DNA from: an uncultured Gemmatimonadales bacterium
GTDB taxonomy: Bacteria > Gemmatimonadota > Gemmatimonadetes > Gemmatimonadales > GWC2-71-9
NCBI GenBank assembly: GCA_963728705.1
Contig: CAVSLY010000024.1
Location: 7,357 to 71,356 of the forward strand
Direction: 5' to 3'
DNA length: 64,000 nt
In this document: in pieces, positions 3,346-12,557 of the stretch
How the letters are laid out: each line of letters starts with the position of its first letter
How positions within the stretch are numbered: position 1 is the first letter of the stretch
Made by a program: the position numbers and the translations under genes
Notes under the pieces: generated by a model
The model's input: the letters and a program-made list of their open reading frames with translations, nothing else
Told to the model about the DNA's origin: nothing
Database searches by the model: none

Positions 3346-5206
3346 TCGTCGGCCCCGCCCCACTTCTCGATCAGGTCGGACAGGCCCTTGCCCGCCGGCA
3401 TCATCGGGAAGACGTTCTGCTCCTCGGCGATCTCGAACCAGATCAGCGCCGGCCCGTCGACCGCCTGCGCCGCCTGGATGGCATCGTCGACCTCGCCGGG
3501 GTCCGGGCCCGGAACGCCGGGATCCCGAACGCGTCGGCGAGCTTCGCGAAGTCCGGGCCCGGGCAGGTTCGCCGAGTGGTAGTTGCCGGCGTAGATGATC
3601 TCCTGCCACTGGCGGATCATCCCGAGCTTCTTGTTGTCGAGCAGGGCGATCTTCACCGGGATGTCGTCGGCGACGAGGGTCATCAGCTCCTGGAACGTCA
3701 TCTGGAAGCCGCCGTCGCCGGTGATCGCCCAGGTCTCCCGATCGGGCCGGCCCAGGGCCGCGCCCATCGCGGCCGGGACCGAGAAGCCCATCGTGCCGAG
3801 GCCGCCGGAGCTCACGTGCGTGTTCGGCTCGCGGAAGCCCGTGTAGCGCGCCAGCCACATCTGGTTCTGCCCGACGTCGGCGACGTAGGTCGCCTGGTGG
3901 TCGGTGAGCTCGCCGATCCGCTCGATGACGTAGTCGGCGGACAGGACGCCGTCGCGCCAGGCGCCGGAGCCGTGCCACGACGACGCCTCGGAGTCGCGCT
4001 CCAGTCGGCCAGCTGGTCGAGGTACTCGCGCGCGCGGCCGGATCGACCTCGGGGACCATCGGGGTCAGGGCCCGGAGGACGCGCCCGGCGTCGCCGACGA
4101 TCGGCACCTCGACCGCGACGTTCTTGCCGATCTCGGCCGGGTCGATGTCCACGTGGATGATCCGGGCATACGGCGCGTAGGTCCGGACGTTGCCGGTAAC
4201 CCGGTCGTCGAAGCGCATCCCGATGGCGATGAGCAGGTCCGCGCTCTGGATGGCGCGGTTGACGTGCTTCCAGCCGTGCATGCCCATGAAGCCGTAGGCA
4301 AGCGGGTGGGTCTCGTCGATCGCGCCGATGCCGAGCAGCGTCCAGGCGACCGGGATCGAGGTCTTCTCGGCGAACGCCTTGAGATCGTCCCACGCCTCGG
4401 CGTGGAGGACGCCATGGCCGGCGAGGATCACCGGGCGCTTGGCGTTCGCGATCTCGGTGGCGGCGGTCTTGAGCTGCCGGCCGTGGCCGTCGAGGTTCGG
4501 GCGGAAGCCGGGCAGCCCGTCGATGACCTCGGCCTCGGTGGGGTGCTCCGCGCGGGTCTCCTGCTGGAGCGCGTCCTTGGTGATGTCGATGTGGACCGGG
4601 GCCGGGCCGTCCGGTGCGCGCGATGTGGAACGCCTCGGCGACGACCCGCGGCAGCTCGTCGGCGTCGCGGACCAGGTAGTTGTGCTTGGTCATCGGCAGC
4701 GTGATGCCGTTGATGTCGATCTCCTGGAACGCGTCCTTGCCGATCAGCGCGGAGGGCACGTTGCCGGTGATCGCGACCATCGGCACCGAGTCGAGCAGCG
4801 CGGTCCCGATGCCGGTCACGAGGTTCGTGGCGCCGGGCCCCGAGGTTCCCATGCACACGCCGACCGTGCCGGTCACGCGGGCGTATCCATCCGCGGCGTG
4901 CGCGCCGCCCTGCTCATGGCGGACCAGGACGTGGCGCAGCTCGGGATAATCGCCCAGGACGTCGTACAGCGGCAGGATGACCCCGCCCGGGTAGCTGAAG
5001 AAGACATCGACGCCCTGGCGGAGGAGGGCCTCGCACAGGACGTCGGCACCGATGCGCGTGCGCTTGAGGTCGCGCGCCTCGTGGAGCATGGCCTTCCGGG
5101 CGCGCTCGACGGCGGCCGCGTGGGCCGTGCCATCGCCGGGCACGTGACTGCGTCGCCCGGTGCCGGCGGGGCCCGGCGGCTTCGAGCGATCGGTCCTGGT
5201 GGTCAT
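3342..5206 (-). CDS. ilvB: Acetolactate synthase large subunit (biosynthetic), several frameshifts
   Basis: [55 protein letters not shown] motif GDGGFQM...[11 protein letters not shown]. Confidence 0.96.
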
Positions 5207-5649: not shown

Positions 5650-8448
5650 GTGGATCAGCCGCCCATCGTCGGACGGGAGCGGGAGCTGGCGCTGATCTTC
5701 GGCCTGGCCGAGGACGCGTTACGGCGATCGAGCCCTGCGGTCGTCCTCGTGACGGGAGACCCGGGACAGGGGAAGACGCGGTTGGTCGCCGAAGTCGCGA
5801 GGCGGACCTCGCGAGTCGAGCGCCTGCACGCCCAGGGCTTCGAGCCCGAGCGGAACGTGCCCCTCGCGGCCGCCGGCGAGATGCTCCGTCGCCTGGCGCC
5901 GCTCCACGTTCCTGCGGCTGCCAACGAGGCAGAAGTCACCGACCCGTCGATCGAACCCATCCGGATCTTCGAGCGGGCGGCTGGAGCGATGACGGCGCTC
6001 AACCCGACGCTCCTGACGCTCGACGACGTCCAGTGGGCCGACGAGCTGAGTGTCGCGCTGTGCCACTACCTCCTTCGCGCCGCGGCGAGCGCCTTGCAGC
6101 CGCTGCTCGTCGTCGTCGCCGGGCGCGACACGCCAGCGATCGCGAGATTCGCAGACGCCGTCCGCCACGTGCTGGACGACGACGCCGTGCTGTCCATCAC
6201 GCTTGGCCCGCTGGACCGAGATGCCGGTCTCACGCTGTTGCGCGCGGCGGCGCCAGGCCTCTCCGCCCCAGAGGCGGACGACGTCTGGCGCCACGCATCC
6301 GGGTCGCCGTTCTGGTTGCATGCCCTTGCCTCCGGGACCGATCGCCGCGCACCCGGTGTGGTCTCGACACGACTTCGGGGCCTCACCGACGATGCGGTGG
6401 GGCTACTCGGTGCGATCGCCGTCGTTGGTCGGCCCGTGGCGACGGCGGATCTGGCGGACCTCCTGGGGTGGCCGGCGCCGCGTGCCGCCGAGGCAGCTGG
6501 CGGCCTGACGGACCGCGGATTGGTGGTGGATCGCGACGGCGGGCTGCAGGTCGCCCACGATCTGCTCCGGGAGGCTGCCGTGGAGCGGCTGCGTCCGGAG
6601 GCGCGACGCGCGCTGCACCGATCGCTGTCCGAGCGACTGGAGCAGTCGGCTGGAGAAGACGTGGGACAGCTTCGCGAGGCGCTCGACCACCGTCGATCGG
6701 GTGGACTCCCGGCGCTGGATCTCGCCGTGCGCCTCCTTCGTTCGCCGCGTCGTCGGTGGCTCGGTCGCGACGGCCTCCACGAGCTTGCGGCGATCGTCGA
6801 CGAGGAGGCGTCAGCATCGGCCGATTGGCCCGATCTCGCGATCGCGGTCGCTTCCCTCGCGGTCGAGCTGAGCGACCACGCGTTCGCCCTGGAACGGTGG
6901 CGGCAAGTCGCCGACCGCAGCACCCTACCGTCGGCCAGGGCCATCGCGGCGCTCGGCGCCGCCAAAGCGGCGTTCGAGCTCGAGCGGGGCGGCGCCGCCC
7001 GGGAATGGATCGAGCGAGCTCGAGTCGCGGCGGCGATGTCCGTCGACCCCGCCAGGGAGGCGGCCCTCGACGCGCTCGACGCGCTCGTGCTGATCTGGCT
7101 CGAACACCGCTTGCCCGAGGGTGAGCTCCTGGCGGAGCGTGCGGCCCAGGCGGTGCGGGCCCTGATCCGTGCGGCGGGTGAGCCGCAGCGCCTCTCACCA
7201 GAGGCATGGCGCGCCACCGTCGATGCCTTACGGGCTCGCTGGGACGCGCACATCCAGCGGGAGGACCGTGTGCCGGACGCCCTGACCGAGGAGCTGCTCG
7301 CCGTCACGGCGCACGACGAAGCCGCGCATCTCGGGTCGATCGTCCTGGCCGGGCTTGCAGCCCATCCCTATTCGGACCTCGAGCTTGCGGAGGAGCGATT
7401 CCGCCTCGCCTGGAACGAGGCCAGACGGCGGCTGATCCCGGCGATCGCCGTCGACGCCGGGTTCTGGTTGGCCGTCACGCTGTTCGACATGGGTCGGCTC
7501 GACGATGCGGGGGCGGTCCTCGCCGAGGTCCAGGCGCTCGTGGCCAGGGCCGGCGACCACGGCAAGATCCGGGCGCGCTCGCGGAGCCTTCCGGACGAGC
7601 TCCGGATCGTCCGTGGCGACTGGGAGGCCGCCGCGCCGTCACTCGTGGCGGCGGCGCGGAGCGCTTCTGACGCCCATCGCCAGATCCCGTACTTCCAGGT
7701 GCTGACCAAGTGGGCTGCCCGCGTCCGCCCGACCACAGCCGTCGGGGAATACCTCGAGGCGGGGGTCCACGCCGCGGCCACCGGCCGCTGCCCCCGTTGC
7801 GCGGCGGACTTCCACCTCGCGGCGGCCCAGGCCGTGGCTCGGATCGGCGACGCTCCCCGCGCCCGACAGCTGCTCGCGGCATTTGCCGAGGAGCGCCGGA
7901 GCCCGAGCCCGTGGGCCGTCGTCCAGCGTCGCTGGACCGAGGCGTTGATCGCGCCGGGCGGTGGCGATGTCGCCGAGGTAGCCGACGAGCTGGAGCGGGT
8001 AGCGGCCGAGGCAGAGCACCTCGGACTGCTTCTCGAGGCGGCGGTCGTCCGGCTCGACCGTGCCCGTGTCCTGGGGGCCATCGACCGGGGCCGGAGTGCC
8101 GAGGCCTTCCGCGACACCGCTCGGGTTGCCGATTCGCTCGGCGCCGTCGCGGTGGGACGTCTCGCCGAGCGCGAGTTGCGAGCGCTGGGTGTGCGGACTT
8201 GGCGGCGTGGCCCGTCCGGCGGGACGGTGGGCGAGTTGACCGCCCGCGAGCTCGAGGTGGCCGAGCTGGTGGCCCGTGGTGACTCGAACCCCGAGATCGC
8301 CGAGCGCCTGTTCCTGTCGCGCAAGACCGTGGAGCGCCATGTCTCGAACATCCTTGGCAAGGTCGGCGTCCGAAACCGCGCCGAGCTGTCCGGGGTCCTG
8401 GCGACCCGGGCCGGGCAGGACCGGCCACCCGATAGCGACATCGAATGA
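5650..8448 (+). CDS. LuxR-family regulator with N-terminal AAA ATPase (MalT/LAL-type)
   Basis: IVGREREL, Walker A GDPGQGKT, Walker B LDDVQWAD, C-terminal HTH LTARELEVAELVARGDSNPEIAERLFLSRKTVERHVSNILGK. Confidence 0.92.
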   Translation: MDQPPIVGRERELALIFGLAEDALRRSSPAVVLVTGDPGQGKTRLVAEVARRTSRVERLHAQGFEPERNVPLAAAGEMLRRLAPLHVPAAANEAEVTDPSIEPIRIFERAAGAMTALNPTLLTLDDVQWADELSVALCHYLLRAAASALQPLLVVVAGRDTPAIARFADAVRHVLDDDAVLSITLGPLDRDAGLTLLRAAAPGLSAPEADDVWRHASGSPFWLHALASGTDRRAPGVVSTRLRGLTDDAVGLLGAIAVVGRPVATADLADLLGWPAPRAAEAAGGLTDRGLVVDRDGGLQVAHDLLREAAVERLRPEARRALHRSLSERLEQSAGEDVGQLREALDHRRSGGLPALDLAVRLLRSPRRRWLGRDGLHELAAIVDEEASASADWPDLAIAVASLAVELSDHAFALERWRQVADRSTLPSARAIAALGAAKAAFELERGGAAREWIERARVAAAMSVDPAREAALDALDALVLIWLEHRLPEGELLAERAAQAVRALIRAAGEPQRLSPEAWRATVDALRARWDAHIQREDRVPDALTEELLAVTAHDEAAHLGSIVLAGLAAHPYSDLELAEERFRLAWNEARRRLIPAIAVDAGFWLAVTLFDMGRLDDAGAVLAEVQALVARAGDHGKIRARSRSLPDELRIVRGDWEAAAPSLVAAARSASDAHRQIPYFQVLTKWAARVRPTTAVGEYLEAGVHAAATGRCPRCAADFHLAAAQAVARIGDAPRARQLLAAFAEERRSPSPWAVVQRRWTEALIAPGGGDVAEVADELERVAAEAEHLGLLLEAAVVRLDRARVLGAIDRGRSAEAFRDTARVADSLGAVAVGRLAERELRALGVRTWRRGPSGGTVGELTARELEVAELVARGDSNPEIAERLFLSRKTVERHVSNILGKVGVRNRAELSGVLATRAGQDRPPDSDIE

Positions 8449-8542
8449 GGGAGCTCCCCGATGAGCGCGGCATCCCGGCCGGCGCATGGTCGACCGCAGG
8501 TCGCCGGACGGCGGCCAGCGGAACCGAAAGGCAGGGATCGAC

Positions 8543-8818
8543 ATGGCCACAGGCACGACCAACCGCATCAACATCACGGCTCTCGGCACGGCGGTGGTAC
8601 TCGCCGCGGCTGCAGCGCTTGCCGGCTGCTCCGTTCAGCGACCCGGCGCGGGCGCGGACCACTCGCTCGACGCGGTCGAACGCAATCGCGCTGCGATGGG
8701 GATCCCGGCGGACACGAGCTACGCCACCGCCGAGCACACGCGGCTGACCTTCGGCCAGCAGCCCGACACGAGCTACGACGCGGTCGAGCGGCTGCGGGTG
8801 GGCGGTATCGGCCAGTGA
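8543..8818 (+). CDS. Small lipoprotein with three internal DxS(Y/L)xxxE(R/H)xR repeats
   Basis: SD-like gaaaggcaggga; lipobox LAG|C; repeats ADHSLDAVERNR / ADTSYATAEHTR / PDTSYDAVERLR. Confidence 0.75.
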   Translation: MATGTTNRINITALGTAVVLAAAAALAGCSVQRPGAGADHSLDAVERNRAAMGIPADTSYATAEHTRLTFGQQPDTSYDAVERLRVGGIGQ

Positions 8819-8841
8819 CGAACTGGCCGGGACAACGCAAA

Positions 8842-8866
8842 GGGCCGTCGGCGGTGCCGACGGCCC
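8842..8866. terminator. Hairpin terminator between convergent small genes
   Basis: gggccgtcggc-ggt-gccgacggccc (11-bp stem), followed by tttgcgttgt on the minus strand. Confidence 0.7.
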
Positions 8867-8950
8867 GTAGCTTGTGGCGCTCCTAGAGCGCGATCGGGAC
8901 TTCCCAGCGATGGCCGGCCTCGACGAAGAGAGCCGACGTCACGGCGGTTC

Positions 8951-9046
8951 TCACCACCATTCCCAGCGCATCCCGGCTCCGACGCTGAGCGCCAGGGAGG
9001 CCAGGACCGTCAGGGCCCATGTGCAACGCGCCAACTTGGCTTTCAC
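8951..9046 (-). CDS. 31-aa signal-peptide-like precursor with Trp-rich C-terminus (putative peptide signal)
   Basis: GTG start with SD aagggga; MKAKLARCTWALTVLASLALSVGAGMRWEWW; directly downstream of the riboswitch and followed by a terminator. Confidence 0.8.
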   Translation of the reverse strand: MKAKLARCTWALTVLASLALSVGAGMRWEWW

Positions 9047-9081
9047 GAGCGATCCCCTTCGTATGAAGAGTGCAATTGCTC

Positions 9082-9161
9082 GATCGGTAGCCGGGCGGTC
9101 TCCTCGCGAGAGATCCCTGGCTTTGCGTCCCCGCCTCACGACGGGTTTGCCTTTGGCGACC
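9082..9161 (-). ncRNA. c-di-GMP-I (GEMM) riboswitch
   Basis: Minus strand GGUCGCCAAAGGCAAACCCGUC-GUGA-GGCGGGGACGCAAAGCCAGGGAUCUCUCGCGAGGAGACCGCCCGGCUACCGAUC: GGCAAA..GACGCAAAGC..UACCG landmarks, GNRA loop, P1 GGUCG/CGAUC. Confidence 0.92.
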
Positions 9162-9171
9162 CATTGATGTC

Positions 9172-9185
9172 GGGACCTTGGTCCC
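9172..9185. promoter_or_regulatory. GGGAC-N4-GTCCC palindrome (DosR/NarL-type box) upstream of the riboswitch
   Basis: gggaccttggtccc; related sites at 12605-12618 and 41959-41985. Confidence 0.5.
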
Positions 9186-9285
9186 TTCTGAAGGTACTGT
9201 CACCCATCCGGTTCCCGGTCCGGAGTACCCAGAAGTACCAGTGACGCTCGGTGTTCGGGGGAGTTGCCGACGAGCAACACCCGAG

Positions 9286-9858
9286 TCAATCGGGGAGCGG
9301 CAGGCTCCGTGCCACGGACGGCATCTGTGGCGCCGTCTTCGAGCGCATCGCCGAGACGATCACGATCGCGATCCCGAGCCCGATGATGACGTCGCCGATG
9401 CTGAAGACGTTCGCGAACGGGACCCACGTCGGAAGCGCGAAGATGTCGGTCAGGGGCGCCAGGGCCGGGTCGGCGATGAAGATGCTGTTCGAGTAGGTCG
9501 ACGGGTCGGGGGGGCCGCCCATCGCCGCCGCAGCGGCGGCACTCGCCGGCATGTAGCCACCGTTCGCGACGATCGCGGCCAGGTTGCTCGCGGCCCCCGC
9601 GGCGACCACGAGCATGCCGGTGATCCCGCGGTTGGCCACGATCGCCGCGATCACCGCGGCCGTCGAGGCCACGTAGATCGGCGGCCCGAGGGCGCCGATG
9701 CGCTCGGTCACCGGATCGGAGAACAGCACGATCTGGATGAACAGGCCGCCGACGATGACCCAGGACCAGCGAAGGTGCAGATCGGCGAGACCAGCTGGGC
9801 GTCCGCCCACCAGGAAGCCGACGACGAGGCCGATCAGGACGGCATAGAGGATGAACAC
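9286..9858 (-). CDS. DUF5317-family membrane protein (putative LspA-like aspartic peptidase)
   Basis: Multi-TM; GGRPAGLADLHLRW, GAASNLAAIVANGGYMP, PLTDIFALP, NVFSIGD; strong SD aaggaaggt before GTG. Confidence 0.8.
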   Translation of the reverse strand: MFILYAVLIGLVVGFLVGGRPAGLADLHLRWSWVIVGGLFIQIVLFSDPVTERIGALGPPIYVASTAAVIAAIVANRGITGMLVVAAGAASNLAAIVANGGYMPASAAAAAAMGGPPDPSTYSNSIFIADPALAPLTDIFALPTWVPFANVFSIGDVIIGLGIAIVIVSAMRSKTAPQMPSVARSLPLPD

Positions 9859-9877
9859 GGCACCTTCCTTGGGCGGG

Positions 9878-12557
9878 TCAGCTCGCGAGCGGGTCGGCGG
9901 TCCGCGCCGCCGCGGGCCACCGGTCGGCCGCGGTGCGCCGCGGGCCCAGGAGCGGCCGGCCCTCGGCCAGGATCGCCGTCATGTCGCCGGCCTCCTGCGG
10001 TCGTGAGAGCAGGTAGCCCTGACCATACTCGCATCCCAGCTCGTGTAGACGGCGGAACTGCCCGGGTTCCTCGATGCCCTCGGCGATGATGGTCAGGCCG
10101 AGCGTGCGGCCCAGGGCCACGATCGCCCCGGCGAAGGCCCAGTCCTCCTCGCTCTCGGCCGGCCCGATGAACTCGCGCGCGATCTTGAGGATGTCCACCT
10201 GGAACCGGCGCAGGTACCCGAGCGACGAGTAGCCCGGTCCCGAAGTCGTCGATGGCGATGCGGACCCCGAGCGCGCGGATGGCCTCGAGGCGGGAGATCG
10301 TCGTCGGCGGTGTCGTGGAACATGACGGTCTCGGTCATCTCCAGGACCAGCTGCCGGGCGTCAGCCCGGTCTCGATGAGGATGGCCTTGAGATCGTTGAC
10401 GAACGTCGGCTCCTGGAGCTGTTGCGCCGACAGGTTGACCGACATCGTCAGCAGCTGGCCGGGCGGGCCGATGGCGGACCACGCTGCCGCCTGTCGGCAA
10501 GCCTCCGACAGCACCCACCGGCCGAGCGGCAGGATCATGCCGTTCTCCTCGGCGAGAGGGACGAACTCGCTCGGGCCGATCAGGCCGCGAACGGGATGCC
10601 GCCACCGCACGAGGGCCTCGACGCCCGTGACCCTCGCCCGGGCAGCGAAACGATGGGCTGGTAGTACACGGCCAACTCGCCCGCGCCCAGGCTCCTCGAC
10701 AGCTCAGCGCTCAAGGCATGGCGCTCGACGATCGCCGCGTGCATCGTCGGCTCGAACACCGACACGCGGTTCTTGCCCGACGCCTTGGCGGTGTACATGG
10801 CGACGTCCGCGTTGCGAAGCAGCTCGTCGGCCCGCTCCGTCCCGAGCCGTGCCGCGGCGATGCCGATGCTGGCTCCGACCGTGGTCTCGTGCCCGTCGAC
10901 GGAGAACGCCGCTCGCATCGATTCGATGATGCGGTGGGCGACCGCCTCGGACTCGGACAGGCCGGGGTCGTCGTCGAGCAGCACGGCGAACTCGTCGCCC
11001 CCGAGCCGGGCCGCCACGTCATCCGTTCGCAGCACGGTCCGCAGTCGCGATCGCGACGTCCGCGAGGAGTCGGTCGCCGGCGGCGTGGCCGAGGGTGTCG
11101 TTGACGACCTTGAAGTCGTCGAGGTCGAGGAAGAGCACGACCGGCATCTTCTCGCTGGGATGCCCGATCCGGTCGACCACCTTCTCGAGGAACAGGGTCC
11201 GGTTCGGGAGGCCGGTCAGCGGATCGTGGTACGCCTGATAGCGCAGCTGCTCCTTCAGCCGGGAGAGCTCGGCGAGCGACTGCTCGAGGTGGCCGTTCTC
11301 GAGGGCGACCGCCGCCTGGTTGGCGAGCGTCTCGAGCAACCGCAGGTCGTCCTCGCTGAACATCGTGCCTTCGGTCAGGCGATTGCTGATGATCAGCGAG
11401 CCGATCGTCTCGGACTCGCCGCGCAGGGCGCTGACCATGTGGCGCGACACGCGACCGTTGGGGTCGTGGGTCTCGTCGAAGAACGGGCCGCTCGACGCGC
11501 CGATGCGCTGGTGGAGCGGGTCGTCGATGTAGTCGCGGTCCGGGACCATCACCTCGGGCTCGCGTTCGTGCCACGACCGGGTCCGGAGGGCATCCCCGTC
11601 GCCGGCGCGCGGGTACAGGACCACCTCGGCGAGCTCGGCGCGGAACATCGTGCGGGCATGGCTCAGCAGCGCCACCAGCGTCGAATCGAGCTCGGGCGAG
11701 TGCTGCAGGATCCGCGACGACTGGTAGAGCAGCTCGAGGCGCTCGTGCTTCTCGCGCTCGGACACGTACGCCTGGTACGCCAGGAAGACCATGACCAGTG
11801 GAAGGACCAGCAGCCAGAGCAACATCGGGTTGAGCCACAGGGCGGCCACGGCCAGCAGGGCCAGGCTCGTGTTGGCCAGGGCGACCATCAGTCCGAACTG
11901 GATCATCTCGGGCAGCTTCCGGAACTGCGGTGCACCGCCGGAGAGGGTGATCACGGTCGCGATCGTGATCGAGCTGATGATCGTCGCGGTCGAGGTCGCC
12001 GCGAAGGCGGCGACCCATTCACGGATGCCGGGCACGCCGACCCGCGGCACGAGCGACGAGACGATCGTGTACGACACGACCGCGATCAGGGCGAAGTTGG
12101 CGAGGTTGAAGGCGATCTTGATCGGCCGCTGCGCCGAGGCGAACAGCATCGCGGCGGCGGAGCCGGTGAGCACGGCGATGAGGTAGTCGGGCGGCGACAG
12201 GAAGAACAGGCCGATGACCGCGGGGAACTCGCTCAGCGAGAACGAGTGGGTCTCACGCCGGAAGTGGACCTCGACGACCTTGAGCTCCGCCACGGCGAAG
12301 GCCAGGGCCAGGACCGGCCACGGAACGTTGAGTGGCGCTGAAGGGACGGGGACGTCATGGAGCTGCGCGAAATAGATCGCGAAAGCCACGAGCGCGAGCA
12401 CGAGCGTGAGGCCCCACACCCGGGCGACCGCCGGGATGGTGGATGCGCCGGCCTGCAGTCGATGCGAGGTCGATCCGTCGCGCAGGCGATGCGTGATTCG
12501 CCCGCGGACGTGGTTCGCTCGGCCTCGGTCCGAAATCCCCCGGATCCGAGTCGACAA
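9878..12557 (-). CDS. Membrane-sensor GAF-GGDEF-EAL protein (diguanylate cyclase/phosphodiesterase), several frameshifts
   Basis: About 6-7 N-terminal TM helices, GAF ([22 protein letters not shown]), [52 protein letters not shown]; start (TTG) approximate. Confidence 0.93.

Follow-up and report, generated by a model that had tools for sequence, protein, structure and literature searches.

A two-gene unit behind a riboswitch aptamer

We analyzed a stretch of 64,000 nucleotides (hereafter the window), which corresponds to positions 7357-71356 of contig C24 in source assembly G000 (58% complete, 39 contigs). On the minus strand of the window, a c-di-GMP-I-GGC riboswitch aptamer (Rfam RF03167) was found at 9082..9160, matching the full model (1-80 of 80) and scoring 69.1 bits (gathering score 59, E 1.6e-15). 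The aptamer is followed by a linker (9047..9081, minus strand) and by a short open reading frame of 31 aa, termed sORF-A (8951..9046, minus strand), which starts with GTG (9046..9044), stops with TGA (8953..8951) and has the C-terminal end G-A-G-M-R-W-E-W-W. A Shine-Dalgarno (SD) sequence, GAAGGGGA, is located at 9060..9053 on the same strand, 6 nt 5' of the GTG. This frame with its GTG start and SD had been proposed in a sequence-only reading of the same DNA and could be confirmed with an identical translation. As also remarked there, the list of open reading frames contains the sORF-A frame only as a longer 62-aa version (8951..9139) that crosses the aptamer.

A second short open reading frame, sORF-B, had been overlooked. 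It encodes 25 aa (8883..8960, minus strand; MVV...EAGHRWEVPIAL) and its start codon, ATG at 8960, falls within the final codons of sORF-A. The 85 nt that separate sORF-A from an intrinsic-terminator-like hairpin (8842..8866, minus strand; 11 pairs, 10 of them G-C, then TTTGCGTTGT) contain sORF-B. This hairpin is the sole terminator-like site in 8400..9900, with shuffles yielding 0.4 +/- 0.7. It had previously been assigned to sORF-A as its own terminator; the hairpin itself is real, but it does not directly follow sORF-A, as the conserved sORF-B intervenes. Because the hairpin lies 3' of sORF-B, the unit is composed of aptamer, sORF-A, sORF-B and terminator. It would represent a self-contained transcription unit in which translation of sORF-B is coupled to that of sORF-A. 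The gene next downstream in the window is convergent. A convergent 110-aa open reading frame for which no Pfam family was found is located at 8486-8818 on the plus strand, and its later part, if read from an internal ATG, resembles a lipoprotein signal (…LAGCS); the hairpin at 8842-8866 is located between this frame and the sORFs. Directly upstream of the unit and on the same strand lies a gene for a DUF5317 membrane protein (9286..9858, minus strand; Pfam PF17248, E 2e-26), and further upstream a GAF-GGDEF-EAL gene (9950..12557, minus strand; Pfam GAF and GGDEF) that is split over frames.

In DNA of 70% G+C, where 49 open reading frames of at least 25 aa overlap 7000..11500, the length of sORF-A alone is no more than expected by chance and the case for a gene therefore rests on cross-genome comparison. 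In taxonomic relatives of the assembly, the aptamer core alone was matched (34 of 61 genomes, query positions ~139-220), and the genes behind these aptamers encode secreted or lipoprotein-like proteins of 172-261 aa, not sORF-A. The DUF5317 gene was found in one of 60 taxonomic relatives. As these relatives lacked sORF-A and, in all but one case, DUF5317, kin were sought through the DUF5317 protein. Using one genome per species, this search returned 196 relatives, and 79 loci were kept, nearly all from Chloroflexota, Chloroflexia or Candidatus Limnocylindrales/Limnocylindria MAGs with 51-75% identity. Given that DUF5317 has its kin in Chloroflexota/Limnocylindria and occurs in only one of 60 taxonomic relatives, contig C24 may be mis-binned and stand apart from the bulk of the assembly. 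Tetranucleotide composition fails to set C24 apart from the rest of the assembly.

Together with the window copy, the sORF-A family comprises 56 copies, 55 of which are found in 54 of the 79 related loci (two in L096). Conservation of the coding frame at these 54 of 79 loci clearly contradicts the lack of conservation at orthologous loci that the sequence-only reading had named as refuting. All 56 DNA sequences are distinct and zero indels occur across the first 28 codons. The mean entropy at codon positions 1, 2 and 3 is 0.58, 0.32 and 1.00, respectively, with the third position being the most variable. A dN/dS comparison had been suggested in the sequence-only reading; carried out as pooled pN/pS, it gave 0.41 in frame versus 1.03 and 2.77 in the two other frames. 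GTG serves as start codon in 55 of 56 copies and the start used is the earliest possible in-frame one in 33 of 56, while an SD core at -16..-4 is present in 52 of 56, which supports the proposed GTG start over the longer frame. Based on this comparison, sORF-A is a conserved protein-coding gene.

The sORF-A consensus reads MKANLARFTWA.ALLASMALT.GAGMRW, with K2, A24, G25, R27 and W28 invariant across the 56 copies. Conservation up to W28 extends over the entire length and includes the hydrophobic helix. At the DNA level, hardly any variation is seen in codons 1-9; from codon 10 onward, third positions vary freely with the residues being kept. Since codons 1-9 are near-invariant in DNA, conservation of the N-terminus may be driven by the RNA and not by the protein. 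The basic N-region and hydrophobic region noted earlier are real, with a best 19-residue Kyte-Doolittle mean of 1.41-2.24 (median 1.69; window copy 1.61), and sORF-A is predicted to be a single-pass membrane peptide of ~29-31 aa with a basic N-terminus and one hydrophobic helix, the latter ending in G-A-G-x-[R/K]-W. The proposal of a Trp-rich core could not be upheld. Only W28 of the three Trp residues is conserved, R27 and W28 being invariant in the tail, and the conserved C-terminal motif is G-A-G-[M/I/L]-R-W only. In 55 of 56 copies, 0-3 variable residues follow W28, so that the WEWW tail of the window copy is a lineage feature rather than a Trp-rich core. The exception is the second L096 copy, with 17 residues past the RW; this extension is Pro/Ala-rich. 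A basic-plus-Trp end ([R/K]-W) is a classical interfacial flank of transmembrane helices.

Counterparts of sORF-B with lengths of 9-35 aa were found in 55 of the 56 copies, starting -16..+5 nt from the end of the sORF-A stop in 54 of 55 and at +32 in the remaining one. The C-terminus always reads [V/I/L]-[E/D]-[A/S]-G-[H/Q/R]-R-W followed by 0-8 residues, with Q replacing G in four copies. Only the last 5-7 residues are conserved and the N-terminus varies freely. Within the motif, third-position entropy is 1.99 for the Gly codon (all four bases) and 1.67 for the His/Gln codon, and because these codons vary at the third position the motif is preserved at the protein level. By this pattern of substitution, sORF-B is coding as well. 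Long (33-aa) forms of sORF-B possess a basic start and a hydrophobic helix, and their profile matched the sORF-A profile (hhalign probability 94.5%, E 7.4e-8, 28 columns). Judged by this profile match, sORF-A and sORF-B are therefore paralogues. Among database representatives, fused A-B proteins were found (P0024, P0038 and P0115), as was one with the order B-A (P0111). In other lineages, sORF-B has 9-20 aa and no hydrophobic stretch, with the G-[H/Q/R]-R-W end being retained. The best Kyte-Doolittle 19-mer of the window sORF-B is 0.73 (weakly hydrophobic) and that of the long sORF-B of L042 is 1.87.

One could argue that no gene exists here and that the conservation reflects a riboswitch expression platform or another RNA element. 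In line with this, sORF-A codons 1-9 are near-invariant in DNA and involved in RNA pairings (see below), and in the subgroup with a 9-aa sORF-B the motif codons appear, by eye, to be conserved at the DNA level too. The free third positions from codon 10 onward with residues kept, the lack of indels among 56 copies and the off-frame pN/pS values argue against it. The Gly codons of both motifs moreover take all third bases, and SD and start codon are conserved. We therefore consider the absence of a gene extremely unlikely.

We then asked how widespread the unit is. Of 251 genomes sampled from the class, 32 contained a match to a sORF-A profile; of 401 genomes across the phylum, 7 did, all seven of which were already in the class list. 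The gene mostly occurs as a single copy, and 3 of the 32 genomes had several matches. Two low-scoring profile hits (L138 and L142) had no aptamer in the 150 nt upstream. Against 1.84 billion protein representatives, the profile returned 139 clusters (50% identity) at E <= 0.001, and many of the representatives are wrongly extended at the N-terminus, reading through the aptamer. Pfam and NCBIfam contained no family for either peptide, the NCBIfam queries for two long sORF-B peptides being one codon off, and ESM Atlas matches were unnamed clusters of 29-30 aa only. No description of the sORF pair was found in literature searches. With its 139 clusters, the family is not rare in metagenomes, but gene callers mostly mis-start or miss the sORFs. 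For positions 8700-9900 of the window, no RNA runs were found; all 24 listed runs are DNA and contain no more than 0.17 of the sampled words. From the genome comparison, we conclude that a c-di-GMP-I-type riboswitch in an uncultured Chloroflexota group is followed by a conserved two-sORF unit that is new.

Pairing between aptamer and coding sequence

Each of the 55 related copies is preceded by an aptamer (51 recognized by pattern, 4 slight variants by eye), with about 35 nt between the aptamer and every sORF-A copy and 102-119 nt from core start to start codon in all related copies. Five of six related loci tested passed RF03167 and the sixth fits RF01051 better. Based on this co-occurrence across genomes, the sORF pair is linked to the aptamer. 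The passages of papers that name the c-di-GMP-I-GGC family gave no ligand data, and we assume cyclic-di-GMP as ligand from the name of the riboswitch family alone.

RNAalifold analysis of 44 sequences yielded a long-range consensus helix between columns 13-19 and 157-162, which correspond to the aptamer 5' strand and sORF-A codons 5-6. In the window, the 5' strand (P1/J1-2, CGCCAA) is located at 9153..9158 and the 3' strand, formed by sORF-A codons 5-6 (UUGGCG), at 9029..9034, both on the minus strand. Across the alignment, 95.1% of cells are paired and compensatory changes are seen in 3 of 6 pairs, a level of compensatory change that none of 500 shuffles matched, while slid controls gave 17-50% paired cells. 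The pairing strands read CGCCAA/UUGGCG in the window and CG(U)CCAG/CUGGCG in most relatives. The unconstrained MFE fold of the window also includes the long-range helix. Near invariance of sORF-A codons 1-9 is as expected if they form part of the expression platform. As for local structures, the SD sits in a hairpin within the linker (CUCUUC/GAAGGG, CGAGC/GCUCG), and a possible hairpin over the start codon (GUGAAG/CUUCAC) has 93.9% of its cells paired and shows almost no covariation.

These pairings suggest how translation of sORF-A could be set by the c-di-GMP-I-type aptamer. The aptamer 5' strand would be required for P1 and the ligand pocket or, alternatively, pair with sORF-A codons 5-6, and this alternative helix would sit beside the hairpin holding the SD. 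As the same strand is shared by the pocket and the codon 5-6 helix, ligand binding would change the fold of the initiation region. When the aptamer was enforced in ensemble folding of the 44 sequences, accessibility of the start codon decreased in 23 and increased in 8, and codons +4..+19 became more open in 26 and less open in none. In these 44 sequences, ensemble folding gave no consistent ON or OFF direction for the switch.

Riboswitches of the c-di-GMP-I class occur before genes for pili, adhesins, enzymes and regulators. Like other c-di-GMP-I (GEMM-I) riboswitches, the aptamer described here matches the full model and lies in a 5' leader with an SD-containing platform. Unlike them, it has a dedicated pair of 9-35-codon sORFs as its sole target, so that this c-di-GMP-I-type riboswitch would control two mini-genes only. 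In other contigs of the assembly and in its relatives, the same aptamer class precedes secreted or lipoprotein-like genes of about 170-260 aa. The ~320-nt unit represents a clean small test system for a cyclic-dinucleotide aptamer gating the translation of small proteins.

Gene neighbourhood and possible function

In 52 of 55 sources, a GAF-GGDEF-EAL homologue is encoded upstream in the same orientation. Among the 32 loci retrieved via the peptide profile alone, 28 have a DUF5317 tblastn match within the fetched 2.5-3.1 kb. Past the GAF-GGDEF-EAL and DUF5317 genes, leuC is found in 41 of 55 sources. From gene order, the sORF pair is in synteny with cyclic-di-GMP genes. In case of the window, tblastn with intact homologues recovered the GAF-GGDEF-EAL gene as four pieces that lie alternately in frames -1 and -2. 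The window's ilvB, at about 4950-5050 on the minus strand, is likewise split (three pieces). The split genes represent either assembly indel errors or pseudogenes; both sORFs are intact.

Pfam analysis of 121 ORFs (at least 120 aa, +/-5 kb) around four related loci identified GAF-GGDEF-EAL, DUF5317, leuCD, ilvBNC, TMEM260-like and one MMPL. This bears on the sequence-only proposal of an exported pheromone or RiPP precursor, in which the N-terminal part would be a signal or leader and cleavage after G-A-G or A-G would free short x-R-W peptides with an extracellular action or a modification. The shape of sORF-A could fit this idea, as it has a basic N-region, a hydrophobic region and G-A-G, and small residues are found at -3 and -1 before [M/I/L]-R-W in sORF-A and [H/Q/R]-R-W in sORF-B. 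A strict shared C-terminal motif combined with a free N-terminus in sORF-B also has the look of a core peptide. Phr, SHP and ComS/XIP are signalling pro-peptides of Gram-positive bacteria, and the sORFs share with these and with RiPP precursors a short precursor-like frame, a conserved C-terminus and a Trp in the putative core. Unlike in those systems, the N-terminal helix of sORF-A is itself conserved, which also distinguishes it from most signal peptides, whereas the putative core past R-W is not. The tail of sORF-A after G-A-G would be 3-6 residues and any freed piece just 3-9 residues, and the short sORF-B forms have no signal-like segment. No maturase, protease or peptidase, receptor or peptide exporter was found among the 121 ORFs around the four loci; the sole transporter family, MMPL, occurs in L047 only. 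RiPP maturases (radical SAM, YcaO, lanthipeptide synthetase, P450 and the like) were likewise not found among the immediate neighbours in the window. The genomic context thus does not support an exported pheromone or RiPP precursor, and we regard this explanation as unlikely, keeping in mind that genes for a maturase, exporter or receptor could sit elsewhere.

An additional argument for peptide processing came from the DUF5317 protein, for which 12 of 30 members gave Pfam hits to signal peptidase II (Peptidase_A8), all of them sub-threshold (best E 0.0025). We do not favour DUF5317 as a signal peptidase II relative cutting after A-G, as hhalign against five Limnocylindria LspA proteins returned a probability of 1.4% and fold matching gave no support either: no signal peptidase II chain was among the Foldseek or VIA-wide matches of the DUF5317 model, which has low confidence at residues 100-150. 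The best VIA-wide match (Z 6.8) was a designed helical barrel. Fold comparison and literature searches gave no convincing match and no function for DUF5317.

On the downstream side, a G+C-rich hairpin with a T-rich tail begins 15-59 nt past the sORF-B stop in 46 of 55 copies, and 36 of 55 sources have ilvB further along that strand at a distance of 0.6-4 kb. This arrangement is reminiscent of regulatory arrest or leader peptides such as SecM, TnaC, SpeFL and MgtL. The sORFs could accordingly be cis-acting nascent peptides whose G-x-R-W ends stall ribosomes near the stops, as SecM, TnaC and SpeFL do, with stalling setting the coupling from A to B as well as formation of the terminator hairpin and hence read-through into downstream DNA. 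Shared with the known systems are very short ORFs, a C-terminal motif near the stop, an RNA leader, a nearby terminator and, for sORF-A and SecM, a hydrophobic N-terminal segment. Only G-x-R-W is strict in both sORFs, mostly 0-3 codons before the stop, and the sORF-A stop and sORF-B start overlap or abut. sORF-B can be as short as 9 aa, and arrest accounts best for its short forms. G-[I/M]-R may moreover resemble G-I-R of the SecM arrest motif, and H-R-W-stop may resemble H-R-P-stop of TnaC.

Several findings argue against such a role. Unlike in the known systems, nothing consistent lies downstream: ilvB is absent in 19 of 55 sources and not adjacent to the sORFs in the window, where a convergent gene comes next. 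The stop context is variable, as both the codon after W and the stop codon itself are unconserved (sORF-A: TGA 38, TAG 15, TAA 3; sORF-B: TAG 25, TGA 25, TAA 5), and natural extensions and A-B fusions place RW far from any stop. The hairpin distance varies from 15 to 59 nt, and the whole sORF-A helix is conserved as protein, again unlike in arrest peptides. A function as ilvBNC leader in particular was rejected, because ilvB of L045 is preceded by a Leu/Ile-rich ORF of its own as well as by a strong terminator. This frame of ~48 codons (L045:6173-6370) has a 12-bp terminator hairpin behind it, immediately ahead of ilvB, and probably represents an attenuation leader for branched-chain amino acids; L036 and L102 also show a peptide of this kind. 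Six loci were examined for T-boxes and other Rfam leaders, and none was found. Overall, we attribute only a small probability to ribosome arrest.

The small hydrophobic single-helix peptides, with start codon and SD buried in structure and hence under tight translational control, could also be membrane-damaging mini-toxins of the type-I-toxin or holin kind, silenced by the riboswitch until the ligand level changes. A unit that stands alone with its own terminator would suit such toxins. We consider this quite improbable, as neither an antisense RNA nor an antitoxin partner was seen and the unit shows stable synteny with signalling genes, is usually single-copy and is not mobile. The short non-hydrophobic sORF-B forms would also be unfitting.

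The reading we prefer, to which we give about an even chance, is that of two riboswitch-gated paralogous small membrane peptides acting in trans in a cyclic-di-GMP module. The peptides would act at the membrane, with the upstream-encoded DUF5317 and GAF-GGDEF-EAL proteins as the likeliest partners, and the unit would form an output or feedback arm of cyclic-di-GMP signalling. Membrane insertion, partner, ligand and switch direction are components of this model that we infer. MgrB, AcrZ, KdpF and Prli42 are small single-pass membrane proteins that tune larger membrane proteins. Like them, sORF-A has ~30 aa, one hydrophobic helix and basic and aromatic flanks, and its gene lies beside candidate partner membrane or signalling proteins. 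In contrast to them, the sORFs form a paralogous coupled pair with a strict G-x-R-W end and a riboswitch in place of a protein regulator; they have no sequence likeness to these proteins and no Pfam or NCBIfam family. A role as membrane helix only does not explain the short non-hydrophobic sORF-B forms with their retained G-[H/Q/R]-R-W end.

Complex prediction weakly supports an interaction of DUF5317 with sORF-A, with a score of 0.35 compared with 0.00 for the best of three controls, contact agreement between runs of at least 78% and a partner pLDDT of at least 61. In calibration, 58 of 80 solved complexes and 2 of 110 mismatched pairs attained this mark; only 7 of the 80 solved complexes and both passing mismatches did so with a score of 0.60 or under. 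Without a prior, a modelled DUF5317-sORF-A complex at this score would be wrong more often than right. A more specific version of the in-trans model would have the G-x-R-W ends dock onto a DUF5317/GAF-GGDEF-EAL membrane complex or onto the dinucleotide and thereby reset cyclic-di-GMP synthesis or breakdown; we assign it a low likelihood. If true, it would constitute a riboswitch-to-small-protein feedback loop without a transcription factor and thus a new kind of second-messenger output. The sORF pair is also the first functional lead for DUF5317.

Further aptamers and tandem units

Tandem copies of the whole aptamer-sORF unit, ~490-570 nt apart, were observed in L096:5713-6540, G291:C16:164127-164699 and G165:C27:22824-23405.

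The source assembly contains eight further c-di-GMP-I-type aptamers (nine in all), yet one sORF-A copy. They are located at C23:48678-48796, C16:216845-216967, C8:74193-74298, C21:157750-157856, C16:204870-204995, C33:6632-6716, C11:134351-134433 and C33:9341-9419. Six of them precede ORFs with lipoprotein-like signal peptides, one of these ORFs being only 38 aa long. One further aptamer lies before a 104-aa ORF that is STAS/anti-sigma-antagonist-like by eye, and the weakest is without a clear ORF.

In relatives of the assembly (L012 and L016-L020; for example L016:1462-2443), arrays of two or three aptamers were found ~1 kb apart. Each arrayed aptamer precedes a secreted protein of 170-230 aa in which a Cys behind the signal peptide is conserved (MRRSLVV...AQTC...). 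The proteins look like outer-membrane-protein paralogues with one riboswitch each.
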